Shown here piece by piece: positions 22,409 to 52,772 of a stretch of DNA of 64,000 nt (within the stretch, counting starts at the first letter, position 1; the number at the start of each line of letters is the position of its first letter). The notes below the pieces were generated by a model that ran no database searches, had not been told where the DNA came from, and saw only the letters and a list, made by a program, of their open reading frames with translations. Source of the stretch: Bacteroidota bacterium. GTDB taxonomy: Bacteria; Bacteroidota; Bacteroidia; AKYH767-A; 2013-40CM-41-45. The stretch lies in NCBI GenBank assembly GCA_004295015.1, contig SHNE01000033.1, positions 75,421 through 139,420 on the forward strand, in the 5' to 3' direction. The translations under genes were made by a program, and so were the position numbers.

Positions 22409-23092
22409 TTAATTGCTTCCCGCCAGGGCTTCGACTCTTGCGATATACTTATCTATTTGAGCTCCCTCAGTCGAAGTTGAGTAATCTTTCTTTATTTTTT
22501 CATATACACTTTTCGCACCCTTGTAATCACCCGTTGATTCAAGTGCTCCGGCCCATTTCATAAGCATGATGGGAGTCGAAAAGGTATTGCTGTTCTCCTT
22601 GGAAGCTTTTTCATAAAAAGAAATTGCTTCATCGGTATTTTTTAGTTCCATATAAGCATCGCCGATAGCTCCATAAACAACAGAACCACTCATCGCATCA
22701 GGAGCATCATATGCCTTTAGCGTTTCGATCGCTTTATCATATTCTTTCTGCTTCATATAGGCCATTCCAAGGTAGTAGCGTGCAATATTTCCTGAAGGAC
22801 TCACTCCATAATCCGAAGCCAGTTCTTCCAGTCCGGGATTGTTTCCATCACCATTTATGGCGAGGTTTAGTGAATCAGCAGTGAAATACTTTTCGGCATG
22901 AAACAACATGGCAGAAGCTTCTTTCTCCTTGCCGGCTACATATATTTTCTGATAGAAAAGATATCCGCCTACTGCTACCAATAGGGCTATGAGGATAATA
23001 CCCAGGCTTTTCTTGTTCTGGTCAACGAAATGTTCCGTTTTATTCACTACTCCGGACACATCAAAATCCGGTTCTTGCTTCTTTTCAGCCAT
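22409..23092 (-). CDS. Tetratricopeptide-repeat membrane-anchored protein (YfgM-like)
   Basis: N-terminal TM helix followed by TPR-like repeats. Likely start at MAEKKQEP. Confidence 0.55.
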   Translation of the reverse strand: MAEKKQEPDFDVSGVVNKTEHFVDQNKKSLGIILIALLVAVGGYLFYQKIYVAGKEKEASAMLFHAEKYFTADSLNLAINGDGNNPGLEELASDYGVSPSGNIARYYLGMAYMKQKEYDKAIETLKAYDAPDAMSGSVVYGAIGDAYMELKNTDEAISFYEKASKENSNTFSTPIMLMKWAGALESTGDYKGAKSVYEKIKKDYSTSTEGAQIDKYIARVEALAGSN

Positions 23093-23271
23093 TTTATTTA
23101 TTGTTTTTTCAAAAACAGGCTGCAAAAATAGCTTTTTTTCGATAACTCGCAATTTCTGACGTAAATTTGAGCTCAGGATTCCTTGTTTTCATCAATATTC
23201 TTCAAAAAGCCTTATTTCATTGGCCTTTGCTTAGGATGAACTTAATGATCCAAAACTCGTTTCTTAAAATT

Positions 23272-24129
23272 ATGCCATCTACTATCAAGTTAATTGAATG
23301 CCCGCGTGATGCTATGCAAGGCTGGACTCATTTTATTCCAACCGAAACAAAGGTCAACTACCTGAACACATTGCTGAAAGTGGGTTTTGACACCCTGGAT
23401 TTTGGAAGTTTTGTTTCTCCCAAAGCCATTCCTCAATTGAAGGATACAGCTGATGTTTTGTCTAAATTGGACTTGACTAACACGAAAACAAAATTGCTTG
23501 CCATCATCGCTAATCAACGTGGCGCCGAAGAAGCGGCATCCTATTCAGAAATCACTTATTTGGGTTTCCCATTTTCCGTGAGTGAAGAGTTTCAAAGGCG
23601 AAATACTAATTCAAGCATCGAAGAATCTCTGAGCCGTGTCAAAGACATTCAGGAACTTTGTCTTAAGAAGAATAAATCCCTTGTGATTTACATTTCTATG
23701 GGTTTTGGCAATCCCTACGGTGATCCCTGGAGCGCAGAGCTTGTAAGTTCTTGGGTGAAACGGCTTGCCCAAATGGGGATCTCCATAATAGCGCTGTCGG
23801 ATACCGTTGGCGTGAGTAATCCCGCCAATATCAAAGAGCTTTTTTCATACCTCATTCCGGAAATGCCAAATGTAGAATTTGGAGCTCATCTGCATTCTTT
23901 AAAAACCAACTGGGAAGAAAAAGTGCATGCAGCCTATGAATCCGGTTGTCGTCGATTCGACAGCGCAATGCGTGGTGTTGGAGGCTGTCCAATGGCAAAT
24001 GATGATTTGGTTGGTAATCTGGCTACTGAAAATTTGGTTTCTTATTTCAATGGCTTTAAGGCACTCAATTTAGATGAAAATTATTTTTCCAAATCAATGG
24101 AATTGGCCGGAAAAATTTTTCAGTCTTGA
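23272..24129 (+). CDS. Hydroxymethylglutaryl-CoA lyase family protein
   Basis: HMGL-like TIM barrel (…ECPRDAMQG…, …GAHLHSLKTN…, …GVGGCPMA…). Start at MPSTIKLIE. Confidence 0.75.
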   Translation: MPSTIKLIECPRDAMQGWTHFIPTETKVNYLNTLLKVGFDTLDFGSFVSPKAIPQLKDTADVLSKLDLTNTKTKLLAIIANQRGAEEAASYSEITYLGFPFSVSEEFQRRNTNSSIEESLSRVKDIQELCLKKNKSLVIYISMGFGNPYGDPWSAELVSSWVKRLAQMGISIIALSDTVGVSNPANIKELFSYLIPEMPNVEFGAHLHSLKTNWEEKVHAAYESGCRRFDSAMRGVGGCPMANDDLVGNLATENLVSYFNGFKALNLDENYFSKSMELAGKIFQS

Positions 24130-24427
24130 ACCATTCATTGTTATATAATTGAATTGCCACAAGCCGAATTTGCTTTTGAAAAACTGCTCTTTTAAAGTTT
24201 AAATCCGAATTTTCGTGAATATAAATCAGAAGAAAGTATGAAGAACTGATGGATTTTAAAATCTGCTTATGCTGAACCGCTTTTTCTGTTAATTTTGCAA
24301 ATAATCGGTCTGTTTAATCACTTATTTTGATTGAATAGATTCAATGGAGAATCTAATCACAAAAAATCTGTAATCTTTAGCCAAATCCATAACAACAAAA
24401 TAATAATCTTATCGTTTATTCCCCGGC

Positions 24428-26701
24428 ATGTCATTACTCATCAATCGTTACTTCCCCCTTTTATCAATTTTACTGCTTGTTCTGATCGCTTTTCCGCAAT
24501 CCGGGATGGCTCAATCTATCGGTCATGTTCAAATTAACGGAAAGATCCGTAAGGATAACCGGCCTGAAGGAGGAGTGACCATTCAAATTACTTCGCCGGG
24601 AGCCGCTCCTCAGACAGTTACTTCTAAGGACAATGGTACTTTCAACGTAAGTCTGGATTTTCAAAAAGAGTATACCATTTCTTTTTTAAAAAATGGTCTG
24701 GTTTCTAAAAGTGTCGAGTTTAACACCAAGGTTCCCCCGCAGGAGTTAGATATTATTATCCAAACAGAATTCAACATCGATCTGTTTGCCGATGTAGCCG
24801 GGATGTCTAAAACAACGGCGATGAATAAACCGGTTGCGAAATATTCTTACAACCCGACTTATGAGGACTTTGTCTTTGATGCAAATTATTCAAAACAAAT
24901 AAAATCAGAACAGGAGACTGCCAGAAAAGATGCTGAAGATCTTGCAAGAATACAGGAGCGTGCAAGACTTGATTCATTAAATAAAATTTGGAATGATTCA
25001 CTTGCGAAAGTAAAAGAAAAGGAAGCTAAGTTGCTTGCAAGTCAGGCTGAACAGGATAGGATAAAAAAAGAGCAGGAAAAAGCCAGACAAGATTCCATTG
25101 CGAGAGCACAAGCTGCCATGCAAGCCAGTGCTGCTTTAGCAGCCAAAGAAAAATCAAGACTCGATAGTATTCAACTGGCAGAGTCAAAAGCAAATGCCCT
25201 GGCTGCTGCTTTGGAAAAGGAAAGACAGGATTCACTTATTAGAGCCGCTGCTGAGCAAGCCCGGCTTAAGGCAATCGCCGATGCCAGAGACAAGGCAATA
25301 CAAGACTCTACTCTAAAGGCTCAGGCAGAACAGGAACGACAAGATTCACTCGCTCAACTCAGAGCAGAAGCTGCAGCCAAAGCTAAAGCAGAGGCCGAAG
25401 CAAAGGCGGAAGCAAAGGCCAAACAAGACTCACTCAACAGAATTGCAGCTGAGGCTGCTGCTGAAAAGGCAAGATTGGAAGAAGAGGCCAGGCTGGCTGA
25501 AAAGGCAAAACAAGATTCTATTTTAAAGGCAAAGGCAGAGGCTGCAGCCAAAGAGAAAGCAATGCAGGATTCTATCATATTTGCAAATGCCGCAGCAGAA
25601 AAGGAACGCTTGCGCAATGAAGCTGAAGCTAAAAGATTAGAACAATTCCGACAAGATTCTATTGCAAAGGCACAATTAGCTGAGAAATCCAGATTAAAAG
25701 CAGAGGCCGATTCAATAGCAAAGTTAGAACAGGATAAACTTGCTCAGGAAAAAGCCAGAAAAGATTCACTTGCATTAGTTGCAGCAGCCGAAAAAGCAGC
25801 TGAACAGGCAAGAAAGGATTCAATAGCACTTGCAGAGCAACAAGAAAAGGCAAGAATTAAAGCTGAAGCAGAGAATCTTGCCAAAGCTGAACAAGATAAG
25901 CTGGAAAGGGAAAAAGCCAGAAAGGATTCTTTGGCATTAATAGCTCAAAAAGAAAACGAAAGGAAGAAGGCTGAAGCGGATAGTATTTTTACTGCAACAG
26001 AAGCCGCAAAGGCATTAGCCCGCGCCAATGAACTAGCCCGACAGGATTCAATTTTACGAGCCCAAAAAGCAGAGCAAGAAAAAGTGCTGGCGGAAACCAA
26101 GGCAAGAGAAGAAGAACTGTTGAAAAAGAAAGCTGCCGAGGAAGAAGCAAAGCAAGCTGCTATCAAAGCAAAGGCAGAACAAGATGCTCAGTCGAAGGCT
26201 GAAGCAGACAGACTAAAGAAGGAAGAAGATGCCAGATTAAAATTGGCAGAAGAGCAAAAAGCGAAAGCAGAAGTAGAGCGCCTTGCTCAGCTGGCAGCGG
26301 ATAAAGCCCGACAAGATTCATTAGCACTTGCCAACCGACTTGAACAAGAGAGGCTGGAGGAGCAAAGGCAAAAGAAAGCATTGGCAGAAATTGAAGAGAA
26401 GAAAAGATTGCTTGCCAAAGCCGGTGAAACTGAAGATAAAACCAAGACAGCTCCTAAACCTTCTACGGTAGTTCCAAAAATTATTGACTCTGATTACCGC
26501 GATGGCTTAACTGAAGAAACAATCACGGAATCCAACAGGATCATTTACAGAACAGTTTTGAAAATGGATGGAAGTGCTTTCAATTATCAGAAGATAGTTT
26601 ATAATTGGGGTGGTATTTATTATTTTAAAAATGAAACCAGTATTACCCAATCTTTATTTGATCAGGAATTGAAGAATGCCAAAGCAACTCTCGGAAAATA
26701 A
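24428..26701 (+). CDS. Secreted protein with an N-terminal carboxypeptidase-regulatory-like domain, a ~550-aa Ala/Lys/Glu/Gln-rich coiled coil carrying repeated [RK][QK]DS[IL] motifs, and a C-terminal globular domain
   Basis: Signal peptide, CarbopepD_reg-like segment, a long low-complexity helical region and a ~100-aa C-terminal domain. Confidence 0.7.
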   Translation: MSLLINRYFPLLSILLLVLIAFPQSGMAQSIGHVQINGKIRKDNRPEGGVTIQITSPGAAPQTVTSKDNGTFNVSLDFQKEYTISFLKNGLVSKSVEFNTKVPPQELDIIIQTEFNIDLFADVAGMSKTTAMNKPVAKYSYNPTYEDFVFDANYSKQIKSEQETARKDAEDLARIQERARLDSLNKIWNDSLAKVKEKEAKLLASQAEQDRIKKEQEKARQDSIARAQAAMQASAALAAKEKSRLDSIQLAESKANALAAALEKERQDSLIRAAAEQARLKAIADARDKAIQDSTLKAQAEQERQDSLAQLRAEAAAKAKAEAEAKAEAKAKQDSLNRIAAEAAAEKARLEEEARLAEKAKQDSILKAKAEAAAKEKAMQDSIIFANAAAEKERLRNEAEAKRLEQFRQDSIAKAQLAEKSRLKAEADSIAKLEQDKLAQEKARKDSLALVAAAEKAAEQARKDSIALAEQQEKARIKAEAENLAKAEQDKLEREKARKDSLALIAQKENERKKAEADSIFTATEAAKALARANELARQDSILRAQKAEQEKVLAETKAREEELLKKKAAEEEAKQAAIKAKAEQDAQSKAEADRLKKEEDARLKLAEEQKAKAEVERLAQLAADKARQDSLALANRLEQERLEEQRQKKALAEIEEKKRLLAKAGETEDKTKTAPKPSTVVPKIIDSDYRDGLTEETITESNRIIYRTVLKMDGSAFNYQKIVYNWGGIYYFKNETSITQSLFDQELKNAKATLGK
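24900..26400. repeat. Low-complexity repetitive coding DNA (GCn/AAR/GAR codons with recurrent 'caagattca') inside the coiled-coil gene
   Basis: Seen in the sequence. Gives rise to several spurious antisense ORFs. Confidence 0.6.
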
Positions 26702-26872
26702 TTTTTTATTCTATTCCTGGACTGAAAAAATGTCAATTTGTTTTTAGGATGAAAGACTTTTTGTCGGACTAAAAATAAATTTTAGACAAAATGTCTGAAT
26801 TGTTTTCGGCATTTTACTAAAAAATGTAATGGCATGGATCTTGAAAAAAGCTTTCTGTATTAACTTAAAAAC

Positions 26873-26879
26873 AGGAGGT
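26873..26879 (+). promoter_or_regulatory. Strong Shine-Dalgarno (AGGAGGT) 5 nt upstream of the hsp20 ATG
   Basis: acAGGAGGTaaaaaATG. Other gene starts in the window lack SD sequences. Confidence 0.5.
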
Positions 26880-26884
26880 AAAAA

Positions 26885-27337
26885 ATGACACTCGTAAAAT
26901 TTAAAAACAACAATGGTTTCGGAAGAGAAAGTTATGTTCCTTCCATCTTTACAGATTTTTTCAATGATTATTTCACCGGTGATTTAAGTCCCCGTGCATT
27001 TAGCAGCACGGTTCCGGCTGTAAATATTCATGAATCTGACAATGAATTTTTTGTGGATCTGGCTGTACCGGGCATGAAAAAAGAAGATTTTAATATTGAA
27101 GTTGAGAATGGTATTCTCACTATCAGTGCAGAAAAAAAATCGGAGAAGAACGAAGAGGATGTTAAGTTTTCAAGAAAGGAATTCTCTTACTCTTCATTCA
27201 AAAGAACTTTTACTTTGCCTGATGCGGTAAATCCTGATAAGATTGCTGCGTCCTATGAAAATGGAGTCTTAGCCATGACACTTCCAAAGAAAGAAGAAAG
27301 TAAGACTAAGCCTGCAAAAGCAATTAAGGTTTCTTAA
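26885..27337 (+). CDS. Hsp20/alpha-crystallin family small heat-shock protein
   Basis: Alpha-crystallin domain (…VDLAVPGMKKEDFNIEVENGILTISAEKK…). Confidence 0.9.
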   Translation: MTLVKFKNNNGFGRESYVPSIFTDFFNDYFTGDLSPRAFSSTVPAVNIHESDNEFFVDLAVPGMKKEDFNIEVENGILTISAEKKSEKNEEDVKFSRKEFSYSSFKRTFTLPDAVNPDKIAASYENGVLAMTLPKKEESKTKPAKAIKVS

Positions 27338-27502
27338 AATGTTTCATGTTGTTGTACATACGGCTCAGAGATTTTCTTTGGGCCGTTTGTTTTTTGTTTC
27401 GGACCATGGAATAAAATACATTTGAGGGACTTATCAGGCAAGGAAAGCAGAACTATTTCCCTACCTTCGCTGCAAATAACAACAAATAAATAATTTGCAT
27501 CG

Positions 27503-28303
27503 ATGGACAGTTCAGTAAAGAAAGACAGGCCTGTAATTCTTGTAACCAATGACGATGGAATCACCGCACCCGGATTGCATGCTTTAGTCGATGCAGTCAA
27601 GGATCTGGGCGAAATAATTGTTGTGGCTCCGGATAGTCCTCAGTCAGGTATGGGTCACGCCATAACAATAAACCAGCCATTGCGATTGGATAAAGTGGAA
27701 GTGTATGGTACTCATCTTTGGTATCAATGCAGTGGCACACCTGTCGATTGCGTGAAAATTGCCATAGATAAAATTTTGCACCGAAAACCGGATCTGTGTG
27801 TTTCCGGTGTTAACCACGGCTCAAATTCATCGATTAATGTTATCTATTCAGGTACCATGTCTGCAGCTATGGAAGGTGCCATCGAAGGAATTCCCTCAGT
27901 GGGTTTTTCTCTCCTTGACTATGCTCTTGATGCTGATTTCAGCGCATCCAAAGTTGTAGCAAGGACAGTAGCAAAAAATATTCTTGCAAGTGGATTGCCC
28001 TCCGGCTCTCTGCTAAATGTAAACATTCCAAAACTTCAACTAAGCGAGTTAAAAGGTATGAAAGTCTGCCGTCAGGCTATGGCGAAATGGAGAGAAGAAT
28101 TTGACGAAAGGATGGATCCAAACAAAAGAAAATATTACTGGCTTACCGGAAAGTTTATTAACCATGATAAAGGCGAGGATACCGATGAGTGGGCCCTTGC
28201 AAACGGATATGTTTCTGTTGTGCCCGTCCAGTATGATTTTACTGCCCATCACGCTATTCCATTTCTTAATACTATGAGTTATGAACTTGAAAAGCTGGAC
28301 TAA
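27503..28303 (+). CDS. surE: 5'/3'-nucleotidase SurE
   Basis: N-terminal ILVTNDDGITAPGL motif. Confidence 0.9.
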   Translation: MDSSVKKDRPVILVTNDDGITAPGLHALVDAVKDLGEIIVVAPDSPQSGMGHAITINQPLRLDKVEVYGTHLWYQCSGTPVDCVKIAIDKILHRKPDLCVSGVNHGSNSSINVIYSGTMSAAMEGAIEGIPSVGFSLLDYALDADFSASKVVARTVAKNILASGLPSGSLLNVNIPKLQLSELKGMKVCRQAMAKWREEFDERMDPNKRKYYWLTGKFINHDKGEDTDEWALANGYVSVVPVQYDFTAHHAIPFLNTMSYELEKLD

Positions 28304-28580
28304 AGATTCCTTTCTATTGGGATTGATTGGTGGTGCAATTTCTTTGTATCTGTTCTTCCTCATCGTTTCCCAGATCAGACTCTTTATTGTAAGCTCAATG
28401 AATAACCCTTATCTGTTTGGTTCGCCCAGATCACAATTGATAGCAGTAGGACTGAACCTTATTTGTTTCCGCATTCTTATGATTAATATGGAAAGAGAAA
28501 AAACAGGAAAGGGTCTGTTATTTGTGACTGTTTTGGCAGTCTTCAGCTATTATATCTATTATTATATAATGAACCATTGA
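28281..28580 (+). CDS. Small hypothetical membrane protein
   Basis: 99-aa ORF with 2-3 predicted TM helices. Confidence 0.35.
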   Translation: MNLKSWTKDSFLLGLIGGAISLYLFFLIVSQIRLFIVSSMNNPYLFGSPRSQLIAVGLNLICFRILMINMEREKTGKGLLFVTVLAVFSYYIYYYIMNH

Positions 28581-28585
28581 CTTAA

Positions 28586-28879
28586 ATGATGAAACGATGG
28601 AGTAATACTATGTTGACCGGTTTGGTGATCGGAATCCTGGTTCCTATGATTAGTTTCCAGACATATGTATCCTTGTACCGGAAAGGAGAAACGTTGATTC
28701 AGGTTGTGGATCGTTTCATATTTTTAAATGTACTTACCCATGTGATGAGTTTGGCTTGCATCCCCAATTTGCTTGTGTTCTTTTTGTTTTTATGGACAAA
28801 CAATGAACGTTCTGCACACGGTGTAATTGGTGCGACAATTATTTATGCGTTGACGGTTGCTGTATTAATTTTTATTTGA
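28586..28879 (+). CDS. Small hypothetical membrane protein
   Basis: 97-aa ORF with TM helices. 4-bp overlap with lpxB. Confidence 0.35.
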   Translation: MMKRWSNTMLTGLVIGILVPMISFQTYVSLYRKGETLIQVVDRFIFLNVLTHVMSLACIPNLLVFFLFLWTNNERSAHGVIGATIIYALTVAVLIFI

Positions 28880-51785: not shown

Positions 51786-52772
51786 ATGAAAGTATCAAAG
51801 GAAGTAAGAATCGGTTTTATTGTTATTGCAGGAGTTCTTCTCGCATATTGGGGTATAAATTTTCTAAAGGGAAGGGATTTTTTTACCAGCCGAACCCTGG
51901 TTTTTGCTGTGTACCACAGAGTTGACGGACTTGCTCCATCAAATGCCGTTTATGTTAATGGAATGAAAGTAGGCATGGTAAGAAAACTTACTCTCCTTCC
52001 TGATTTTTCTGGTCGTATTCTGGTAAGTCTTCAAATTAACAATGATTTAAAAATTCCCAGAAACTCTGAGGCAGAAATTTATGGTACAGATTTGCTGGGT
52101 TCGAAAGGAGTTCGAATAATTTTTGGGGATAGTAAGGAAGACCTGCAGGATGGAGACACACTGATTGCTGATATCCAAAAGAGTCTCACGGAAGAAGTAA
52201 ATGCCCAGGTAGCGCCCTTCAAACAGAAGGCGGAAAGTTTATTGTCTTCCATGGATTCTGTGTTACTCATTGTTCAGGCCGTCTTCAATGAGACAACCAA
52301 ACAGAATTTAAAGAACTCGTTTCAAAGTATTTCTAATTCTTTATCTTCTATTGAACATATCGCATCAAATCTTGATACAGTCCTTTCTCCAAAAGGGAGG
52401 CTGCAAAATATTCTGGCCAATGTCGAATCCATTAGTCTCAACCTGAAGAATAATAACGATAAGATTGAGGGAATACTAAGTAATTTTCATGCACTTTCAG
52501 ACACACTGGTTAAGTCGAATTTTGCCGGTACTGTCGAGAATGCCAGAAAAACACTTGAAGAAACTGCAGGGATATTTGCCAAGGTTAATAAAGGGGAAGG
52601 TTCTCTCGGGATGTTGGTGAATGATGATAGCTTGTATTCGCAATTGAATTCGTCTGCACGCGATTTGGATTTGCTGTTGCAGGATATCCAACTTAATCCT
52701 AAAAAATATCTGAGCTTTTCCGTTATTTCAATAGGAAGTGGTAAAAAAAGTAAAAAGACTACAGGGAACTAG
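51786..52772 (+). CDS. mlaD: MlaD/MCE-domain protein
   Basis: N-terminal TM helix plus an MCE domain (…VYHRVDGLAPSNAVYVNGMKVGMV…). C-terminal helical region. Confidence 0.8.
   Translation: MKVSKEVRIGFIVIAGVLLAYWGINFLKGRDFFTSRTLVFAVYHRVDGLAPSNAVYVNGMKVGMVRKLTLLPDFSGRILVSLQINNDLKIPRNSEAEIYGTDLLGSKGVRIIFGDSKEDLQDGDTLIADIQKSLTEEVNAQVAPFKQKAESLLSSMDSVLLIVQAVFNETTKQNLKNSFQSISNSLSSIEHIASNLDTVLSPKGRLQNILANVESISLNLKNNNDKIEGILSNFHALSDTLVKSNFAGTVENARKTLEETAGIFAKVNKGEGSLGMLVNDDSLYSQLNSSARDLDLLLQDIQLNPKKYLSFSVISIGSGKKSKKTTGN

Follow-up and report, generated by a model that had tools for sequence, protein, structure and literature searches.

A predicted O-glycosylated helical rod protein with a sequon-centred repeat unit from uncultured Bacteroidota

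Introduction

What is the meaning of an Asp-Ser dipeptide that recurs again and again along a long predicted helix? The question is raised by a gene in a stretch of 64,000 nucleotides (nt) from an uncultured Bacteroidota bacterium (contig SHNE01000033.1, positions 75,421 to 139,420; the whole stretch is called the window below). The open reading frame (ORF) extends on the forward strand from an ATG start codon at position 24428 to position 26701 and encodes a protein of 757 amino acids (aa). An earlier description of this DNA, called the original prediction here, had regarded it as a secreted coiled-coil protein with a recurring motif; its ORF and every peptide it had quoted, including the C-terminal sequence, could all be located in the translation of 24428..26701. 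Our reading, which is held with moderate confidence, is that the protein is a hyper-O-glycosylated, probably periplasmic rod that resembles a single alpha-helix (SAH) and connects a transthyretin-like head with a novel tail. The glycosylation, the localisation and the spacer role of the rod protein are predictions.

The recurring motif matches the O-glycosylation sequon of Bacteroidota

The motif DS[IL] was found 17 times across aa 182-630, together with one DST at aa 293. In 5000 shuffles of aa 161-660, DS[IL] occurred on average 0.19 times and at most 3 times, and thus the observed number was never reached. The same was true for the stricter motif [RKQ][QKL]DS[IL], with 13 observed instances and a shuffle mean of 0.018. 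Therefore, the recurrence noticed in the original prediction is real and lies far beyond the effect of composition. The sites are as follows:

24971..26323, forward strand: array of 18 D-S-[L/I/T] sequons, from a motif scan with the sequon definition of PMC12871550
First nine sequon sites: aa 182, 190, 222, 246, 268, 293, 306, 334, 363
Last nine sequon sites: aa 381, 410, 428, 446, 464, 500, 518, 540, 630

The spacings are, in order, 8, 32, 24, 22, 25, 13, 28, 29, 18, 29, 18, 18, 18, 36, 18, 22, and 90 residues. With the exception of the last one, all are between 8 and 36 residues, and a spacing of 18 (or 36) recurs six times.

This motif agrees with a known modification signal. In Bacteroidota, general O-glycosylation takes place at the sequon D-(S/T)-(A/I/L/V/M/T) of non-cytoplasmic proteins; its third residue is mostly L, I, V, T, A, S or M, its Asp can almost never be replaced by Glu, its occupancy is in general almost complete, and sequons introduced by engineering are modified, even in a different species (PMC12871550, PMC8550257, PMC8729774). 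An oligosaccharide is attached to the Ser or Thr on the periplasmic side. The system is widespread, but its function and its oligosaccharyltransferase are still unknown (PMC12871550). For D[ST][AILVMT], 18 instances were observed in the 757-aa protein, while 1.6 were expected from its own composition.

The D[ST]x tripeptides of 39 family members (n=592) were used to analyze whether the motif behaves like the sequon. An allowed third residue was present in 92% of the cases, compared to an expectation of 40%. L (34%) and I (33%) dominated, followed by T (17%) and V (5%), whereas Ala accounted for 2% although it is the commonest residue. Most of the remaining, non-conforming cases stem from a DSD tripeptide that is conserved where the tail begins and is not a sequon. 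The exchange of Asp for Glu was nearly absent, with 529 instances of DS[ILVMT] and 8 of ES[ILVMT], although Glu outnumbers Asp. A hydrophobic residue followed D-S in 92% of the cases, while it followed E-S, K-S or A-S in 10-34%.

The positions of the sequons are also conserved. In an alignment of 26 homologues, which are 33-55% identical overall, the complete sequon was retained by 58-100% of the homologues at 16 of the 18 sites, and the identity of the flanks around the sequon columns was 0.15-0.7 (0.15-0.5 for flanks within the rod), i.e. far lower. The two remaining sites had values of 0.31 and of 0.04, the latter at a site that is aligned to gaps in 96% of the homologues. Orthologues from 50 species-level genomes have lengths of 490-935 aa and contain 4-29 sequons (median 16). 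In superfamily members that share this head and tail, the middle can be an Ala/Glu/Lys rod or a TPR array without a single DS, and thus DS is not required for such a rod.

Within the window, the sequon density of the protein was the highest (2.38 per 100 aa, window median 0.33). As judged by a crude classifier, other ORFs with N-termini resembling signal peptides or transmembrane (TM) segments had a higher sequon density than the rest (0.52 versus 0.30 per 100 aa, p 0.012) and a higher ratio of observed to expected sequons (1.88 versus 1.30, p 0.012). Enrichment in exported ORFs is the signature by which the review of the system recognises organisms that have it, and the result is as expected of an organism that uses the system. 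The second-highest density in the window (5 sequons, 1.5 per 100 aa) was observed for an ORF of 328 aa with a TM-like N-terminus at 51786-52772 on the forward strand.

Taken together, the family statistics show that the recurring D-S-[I/L/T] behaves as the general O-glycosylation sequon of Bacteroidota and is under selection as such. The original prediction had considered the Asp-Ser dipeptide as a possible repeated modification site, which turned out to be right in kind. All features that can be tested in a sequence mark the 757-aa protein as a putative substrate: the organism belongs to the Bacteroidota, as seen also from a protein with a type A sorting domain of the type IX secretion system (T9SS) and from typical Bacteroidota housekeeping neighbours in the window; the protein is predicted to be non-cytoplasmic (signal peptide, Q-rule); and the sequon is present 18 times instead of 1.6 times.

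Domain architecture of the protein

The protein can be divided into five parts, and the layout of the mature protein would be head, rod, linker and tail:

24428..24511, forward strand: signal peptide, aa 1-28 (MSLLINRYFPLLSILLLVLIAFPQSGMA, followed by Q...), with a hydrophobic core and then Ala28-Gln29
24524..24877, forward strand: N-terminal beta-sandwich module (head), aa 33-150, CarboxypepD_reg/transthyretin-like plus a conserved extension
24881..26395, forward strand: helical rod, aa 152-656, from AlphaFold2 (AF2) helices and a composition without Gly or Pro
26396..26503, forward strand: flexible linker, aa 657-692 (…AGETEDKTKTAPKPSTVVPKIIDSDYRDGLTEE…), with an AF2 predicted local distance difference test (pLDDT) score of 36-49 and no secondary structure
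26504..26701, forward strand: C-terminal domain (tail), aa 693-755, and stop codon, from the AF2 model

The dipeptide Ala28-Gln29 is nearly invariant in the alignment of the 26 homologues, and it agrees with the Q-rule for signal peptidase I substrates of Bacteroidetes (PMC5837995). A lipobox Cys is not present in the signal peptide. It is thus probable that type I cleavage exposes Gln29 and that the mature protein starts there.

The head was modelled with a pLDDT of about 90, and its conserved extension has the signature FN.DLF...KPVAK.SYNPTYEDF. The carboxypeptidase-regulatory-like nature of the head, as originally proposed, was supported in part. The protein's own match to Pfam family PF13620 (aa 35-97, E 1e-3) reached 19.7 bits and thus stayed under the threshold of 32.3, but homologues do carry PF13620 matches. 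Furthermore, a Foldseek search of the PDB with the head model revealed similarity to the carboxypeptidase-like domain of teneurin, to transthyretin-like proteins, and to the N-terminal extensions (NTEs) of SusC proteins (9hfj and 6ytc), with E values of 3e-5 to 3e-2.

The boundaries of the C-terminal half had to be revised. The helical part, formerly given as about 550 residues, comprises about 505 residues, and the C-terminal domain, formerly about 100 aa, has about 65 aa and is preceded by the disordered linker. This linker contains Lys, Thr and Pro and is variable in the homologue alignment.

The whole protein had no match in NCBIfam, only the sub-threshold CarboxypepD_reg match in Pfam, and none in a sequence search of the PDB. 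A search of the protein database gave about 38 close homologues, and those with a source name are all called 'hypothetical protein', apart from the distant relative P0069. The absence of this architecture from the described families, which the original prediction had suspected, was thus supported.

The rod resembles a charge-paired single helix

The rod contains zero Gly and zero Pro, and 79% of its residues are A, E, K, L, Q or R. AF2 predicted three helices (aa 152-252, 291-425 and 489-656); the joints have low confidence and the same composition. The existence of a long helical rod is therefore well in line with the original prediction. The DS motifs are situated within the AF2 helices and not at the breaks, and for this reason a helix-capping or helical-hairpin repeat, in which each DS would open a new helix, was rejected.

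In contrast, the term coiled coil did not hold. In the best heptad frame, the hydrophobic occupancy of the a/d positions was 2.51 of 8, compared to 2.52 in shuffled sequences, and it was below the shuffles when Ala was counted. At no period, including 3.5 and 3.6, did a peak in the Fourier spectra of hydrophobicity exceed the shuffles, and the mean helical hydrophobic moment was below the shuffles (z -2.6). Thus, none of the three approaches gave a hydrophobic seam, and a canonical coiled coil was rejected on the basis of the Fourier and heptad-frame results. Pairs of opposite charge at i,i+3/i+4 numbered 151, compared to 88 +/- 7.5 in shuffled sequences (z 8.5). Together, the rod looks like a charge-paired, SAH-like helix rather than a coiled coil. 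Its charge content is low (E+K+R 36%) and its Ala content is high (25%, with Leu+Ile at 14%) in comparison to a classic SAH, and therefore the rod is termed only SAH-like. SAHs link domains in the manner of rigid connectors or springs (PMC5347031, PMC5812594).

The Ala/Lys/Glu-rich helical composition is similar to that of TolA domain II, and the source name of the distant relative P0069 is 'membrane protein involved in colicin uptake'. The protein might thus be an ordinary envelope spacer of the TolA or FimV type with a motif that is a mere by-product of low-complexity composition. We consider this very improbable, since the motif is about 90 times as frequent as expected from shuffles, the N-terminus has the look of a cleavable signal peptide and not of an uncleaved anchor, tolQ, tolR, tolB or pal neighbours are not present, and no TolA or FimV model of Pfam or NCBIfam matched at E<=1. 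The kinship with TolA/FimV that had been suggested was accordingly not substantiated. TolA was rejected as a candidate because no model of its C-terminal domain or its full length matched at this limit, because the Ala-Gln cleavage site is conserved, and because the neighbours encode HMGL-like, Hsp20, SurE and LpxB proteins. FimV was rejected because LysM, the FimV core and the FimV C-terminal motif were not found with Pfam and NCBIfam.

The tail domain occurs in a large superfamily with exchangeable middle parts

The AF2 model of the tail, based on a 32-sequence alignment, consists of a five-strand beta meander and a C-terminal helix (pLDDT 90.2). The domain has the signature Y.K..Y.WGG..YFKN..IT...F..E. 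It has no Pfam family and no sequence relative in the PDB, and the model had no significant fold match in the PDB or BFVD. A profile search for named relatives of the domain yielded only short unnamed fragments. On the other hand, the tail profile matched 1,465 clusters at 50% identity, 619 of them at E<=1e-10. Among the best 150 of the 1,465 matches (proteins of 60-2282 aa), the tail is located at the C-terminus or within about 10 residues of it in nearly all cases. Four of six long tail-bearing proteins that were scanned have a CarboxypepD_reg head and TPR repeats. The tail is thus a candidate for a new domain family, and it would mark a large uncharacterised superfamily of Bacteroidota envelope proteins.

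In a collection with one genome per species, at least 130 candidate stretches encode a relative, and 78 loci were kept; the best match is 70% identical. Almost all of the 78 loci are from metagenome-assembled genomes of uncultured Bacteroidota. Two are labelled 'uncultured Bifidobacterium sp.' and are probably mis-assigned bins. Of the named species among the loci, only Ca. Pollutiaquabacter aromativorans is in agreement with the lineage.

The sequon rod itself is a mobile module. Two relatives, P0043 (locus L005, 6001-9177; 1058 aa) and P0057 (L086, 4658-8491; 1277 aa), have 29 and 35 DS, respectively, of which 28 and 31 belong to DS[ILVM]. Each has a pair of CarboxypepD_reg heads and ends in an OmpA domain for peptidoglycan binding, the score of which exceeds the Pfam threshold. 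Both genes are preceded by uvrA. The P0043 gene is followed by an ORF of 173 aa and then by the genes for PBP2 and RodA, while the P0057 contig stops before that point. In another relative, P0052 (L088, 5001-7094), a sequon rod and a WGG-type tail are attached to a head of Laminin_G_3 and HYR domains. The P0052 gene is clustered with Ig_7, NAGPA and RHS/YD-shell genes.

A periplasmic location is more probable than the cell surface

The OmpA peptidoglycan-binding tails of P0043 and P0057 place such rods in the periplasm. The similarity of the head to the NTE domains of SusC transporters, which are periplasmic, was also counted in favour of a periplasmic setting. In addition, O-glycosylation mainly targets periplasmic domains (PMC8729774).

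The alternative is that the protein is a cell-surface fibril or adhesin stalk that crosses the outer membrane, with the C-terminal domain as a new sorting or anchoring signal. Several observations are compatible with it. The tail has the terminal position that is found with sorting domains, T9SS cargo is encoded nearby in the genome (the TIGR04183 match in the window), the rod would be longer than the periplasm if it were straight, and the Laminin_G_3 and HYR domains of the relative P0052 are typical of surface proteins. However, the protein itself has no match to TIGR04183, PF18962 or a type B C-terminal domain (CTD), and T9SS CTDs are sandwiches of seven strands in a 3+4 arrangement (PMC11285876), unlike its modelled tail of five strands and a helix. 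T9SS cargo was rejected as an identity of the protein for these two reasons. Furthermore, the relatives that end with OmpA are periplasmic, and the abundant surface proteins of P. gingivalis are depleted of O-glycosylation sites, while periplasmic domains are rich in them (PMC8729774). A surface stalk therefore appears improbable. In the original prediction the protein had been assigned to the cell surface; this is unproven, and the lack of a lipobox and of a T9SS CTD as well as the OmpA-ended relatives make the periplasm the more likely place.

Proposed mode of action and significance

The following model is proposed for the glycosylated rod. The protein would be exported by Sec, and the signal peptide would be removed by type I cleavage to yield a mature N-terminus at Gln29 of an envelope protein that is most likely periplasmic. 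The rod would be held mainly by intrahelical i,i+3/4 salt bridges and not by a coiled-coil core. As D-S-[I/L/T] is the sequon of the system, the predicted product is a rod with up to 18 O-glycans. A glycan every 18-36 residues (about 2.7-5.4 nm) would turn it into a bottlebrush glycoprotein. Its probable structural role would be that of a glycan-decorated spacer or scaffold that is held by both terminal domains. The glycans could shield the exposed helix from proteolysis, and the protein might contribute to the hydration and the physico-chemical properties of the periplasm. The family, with a sequon-centred repeat unit and a median of 16 sites per protein that are conserved in at least 50 species, would surpass all predicted substrates described so far. 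This argues that the glycans, at high density on a rigid rod, would be the functional payload and not a stabilising decoration. The mass shift over many sites would be large, and therefore the protein would be a convenient reporter substrate to dissect sequon recognition, including whether sequons within a helix are used.

A more far-reaching idea is only tentative. The protein might be the bacterial analogue of a mucin or a proteoglycan core, i.e. a long single-alpha-helical rod with a repeat unit that evolved around the sequon and that forms a periplasmic or envelope 'glyco-bottlebrush'. Its two conserved end domains, of which the tail would be a new fold, would then define a superfamily of bridging proteins in the Bacteroidota envelope that comprises over 1,400 clusters and in which the middle part can be exchanged (sequon rod, plain rod, TPR array). 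If so, mucin-like bridging proteins could set the spacing or the hydration of the envelope, and the family, as a natural substrate of high multivalency, would help to identify the O-oligosaccharyltransferase.

Gene neighbourhood and sequence variation

The neighbours in the window include housekeeping genes and encode RibH, a TPR/TM protein, an HMGL-like protein, Hsp20, SurE, LpxB and ComEC. Two features upstream of the rod gene were of interest:

23272..24129, forward strand: HMGL-like (hydroxymethylglutaryl-CoA-lyase-like) gene, NCBIfam NF004283, 192.8 bits at a cut-off of 246
24290..24297, forward strand: TAATTTTG, a possible but weakly indicated Bacteroidetes-type -7 box (TAnnTTTG), 131 nt 5' of the ATG

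An HMGL-like homologue is situated directly 5' of the gene and on the same strand in about 72 of the 78 related loci, even when all other neighbours differ. The pairing is absent in the more distant members of the superfamily. In this wider context neighbours are not conserved, and only the HMGL-like gene (in this subfamily) and UvrA/PBP2/RodA (with the OmpA-ended relatives) recur. TAATTTTG agrees with TAnnTTTG, the Bacteroidetes -7 consensus. This would suggest that the rod gene has its own promoter, in spite of the conserved upstream partner. A clear -33 element was not seen, and a sigma-70 scan did not yield scores above those of shuffled sequences.

Further observations concern other neighbours. 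The protein encoded at 22409-23152 on the reverse strand (247 aa or 227 aa) has one TM segment and TPR repeats and weakly resembles Tol-Pal YbgF/CpoB (TIGR02795, 47 bits, cut-off 90); its gene is syntenic with RibH in many related genomes. Between surE and lpxB, two small hydrophobic ORFs of 99 and 97 aa are located on the forward strand (28281-28580 and 28586-28879). They have no Pfam match, and ORFs of equal size are present at a similar position in the loci L001 and L003.

The repetitive DNA had been regarded as a likely substrate for length variation, and this could not be corroborated. Tandem Repeats Finder (TRF) detected only two small arrays in the rod gene, 12 nt x 2.9 and 18 nt x 2.7. 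The copies that encode the motif are dispersed and short (29-78 nt), are 60-90% identical, and do not form a clean tandem array. An identical 757-aa protein is encoded in three other metagenome assemblies, the loci of which are collinear with the window. The rod gene in these assemblies has 0-4 substitutions, which are all synonymous, and no insertions or deletions. Repeat number and length change between species only (490-935 aa). Rapid variation of the repeat number was not seen in this small sample of three other assemblies, and a hypervariable repeat locus was rejected on the basis of the two tiny arrays, the diverged short copies and the three collinear assemblies. In these near-identical strains (L089-L091, compared with 23428-27701 of the window), 6-7 substitutions were counted in 700 nt of the HMGL-like gene, compared to only 0-4 in the 2274 nt of the rod gene.

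Conservation beyond the sequon and other points against glycosylation

Several results weigh against the interpretation as a glycosylated periplasmic rod. First, the conservation is not limited to the sequon. The extended consensus over 600 instances is A-R-E-K-A-R-Q-D-S-[IL]-A-[KR]-[AV], with Lys at position -4 in 86% and Arg or Lys at -2 in 55% of the instances. In the D[ST]x tripeptides of the 39 family members, the ratio of Ser to Thr is 576:16, whereas only a 'slight preference' for Ser has been reported for the Bacteroidota sequon (PMC12871550). The basic residues and the excess of Ser indicate an added structural constraint or repeat ancestry; the excess conservation could be due to common descent of the repeat units, to an intrahelical K(-4)...D(0) salt bridge, or to a polar motif of the RxD type.

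These features lead to the main rival explanation, namely that K-A-R-Q-D-S-[IL] is purely structural and unmodified, either as a polar clamp or register motif in a helical bundle or as a K(-4)...D(0) salt-bridge unit. R-x-D fits the RxD motif that reportedly supports left-handed coiled coils in the stalks of trimeric autotransporters (PMC6555100, citing Alvarez 2010). The most common spacing of 18 residues corresponds to 5 helical turns, and ten consecutive motifs (aa 363-540) fall into an 80-degree sector at 3.6 residues per turn. Both this arrangement and the Ser excess, which is far beyond the requirement of the sequon, are in favour of a structural role. However, the spacings are broad in the family, and arithmetic on the spacing histogram showed that about 39% are within +/-40 degrees, compared to an expectation of 28%. 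Therefore, one-face display is not a firm constraint, and a strictly periodic display on one face was rejected although it fits the ten motifs in this protein. The absence of a heptad or other hydrophobic periodicity and of an amphipathic bundle seam also argues against the structural explanation. The same is true for the residues of the motif: Glu hardly ever replaces Asp, and Thr is accepted at +2 while Ala is avoided there, which suits a sequon better than a position in a helix core. Lastly, DS is entirely missing from some rods that share the head and the tail. In summary, a purely structural motif is rather unlikely; a structural function is compatible with glycosylation too.

Further points concern the setting of the proposed glycosylated rod. 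Fully extended, its 505 residues would measure about 76 nm, and the usual width of the periplasm is smaller. Therefore, the rod would have to contain kinks, run alongside the wall, or be located outside the cell. No functional link to the HMGL-like gene is apparent, and the glycosylated rod does not explain the pairing. The 64-kb window does not show a glycosylation locus of the LFG type, which was not looked for outside it. The oligosaccharyltransferase would have to tolerate sequons within a stable helix. The source organism is uncultured, and the glycans are predicted from its sequence.

Comparison with known systems

The rod shares with SAH (ER/K) domains the opposite-charge pairs at i,i+3/4, the lack of a hydrophobic seam, and the absence of Gly and Pro. 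It differs from them in composition, since the charge content of a typical SAH is well above 36% and Ala, Leu and Ile are abundant here, and in being split into three helices by AF2.

TolA is an envelope protein in which a long helical stretch, rich in Ala, Lys and Glu, lies between terminal domains. The rod protein resembles TolA domain II in having such a stretch between terminal domains and in charge pairing. In contrast to TolA, it lacks an uncleaved N-terminal anchor and the TolA C-terminal domain, its gene has no tol-pal neighbours, and TolA models did not match it at E<=1.

As in the RxD/YxD stalks of trimeric autotransporters (PMC6555100), R-x-D triplets are found repeatedly along the helical part. 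In contrast to these stalks, the rod has no heptad or pentadecad periodicity and no autotransporter anchor, and it belongs to another phylum.

PorE consists of OmpA-family, CarboxypepD_reg and TPR modules. The superfamily described here shares the signal peptide, the CarboxypepD_reg head and the TPR or rod middle with periplasmic OmpA-family proteins of Bacteroidota of the PorE/PG1058 type, and some rod relatives also share the OmpA peptidoglycan-binding tail. The 757-aa protein differs from this type by the lack of an OmpA domain, a beta-propeller and a lipobox and by the different fold of its tail. PorE has many predicted glycosylation sites (PMC8729774).

The closest parallel is offered by the known O-glycosylation substrates, such as the S-layer proteins TfsA and TfsB of Tannerella forsythia and the periplasmic domains of PorE, PorW and LptD, which are from the same phylum, are exported, and have the exact D-S-[L/I/T]. 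The glycoproteomes described so far contain on average about 2 sites per protein (257 and 312 sites in 145 proteins), and the most modified proteins of Prevotella intermedia have 10, 7 and 7 sites. The rod protein differs from the described substrates in having 18 predicted sites along one helix as part of a repeat unit. Its orthologues have up to 29 sequons and the OmpA-ended relatives about 30, as counted in the sequences. Most likely, the rod protein, which belongs to an undescribed family, represents an extreme variant, encoded by repeats, of a modification system that is already known.

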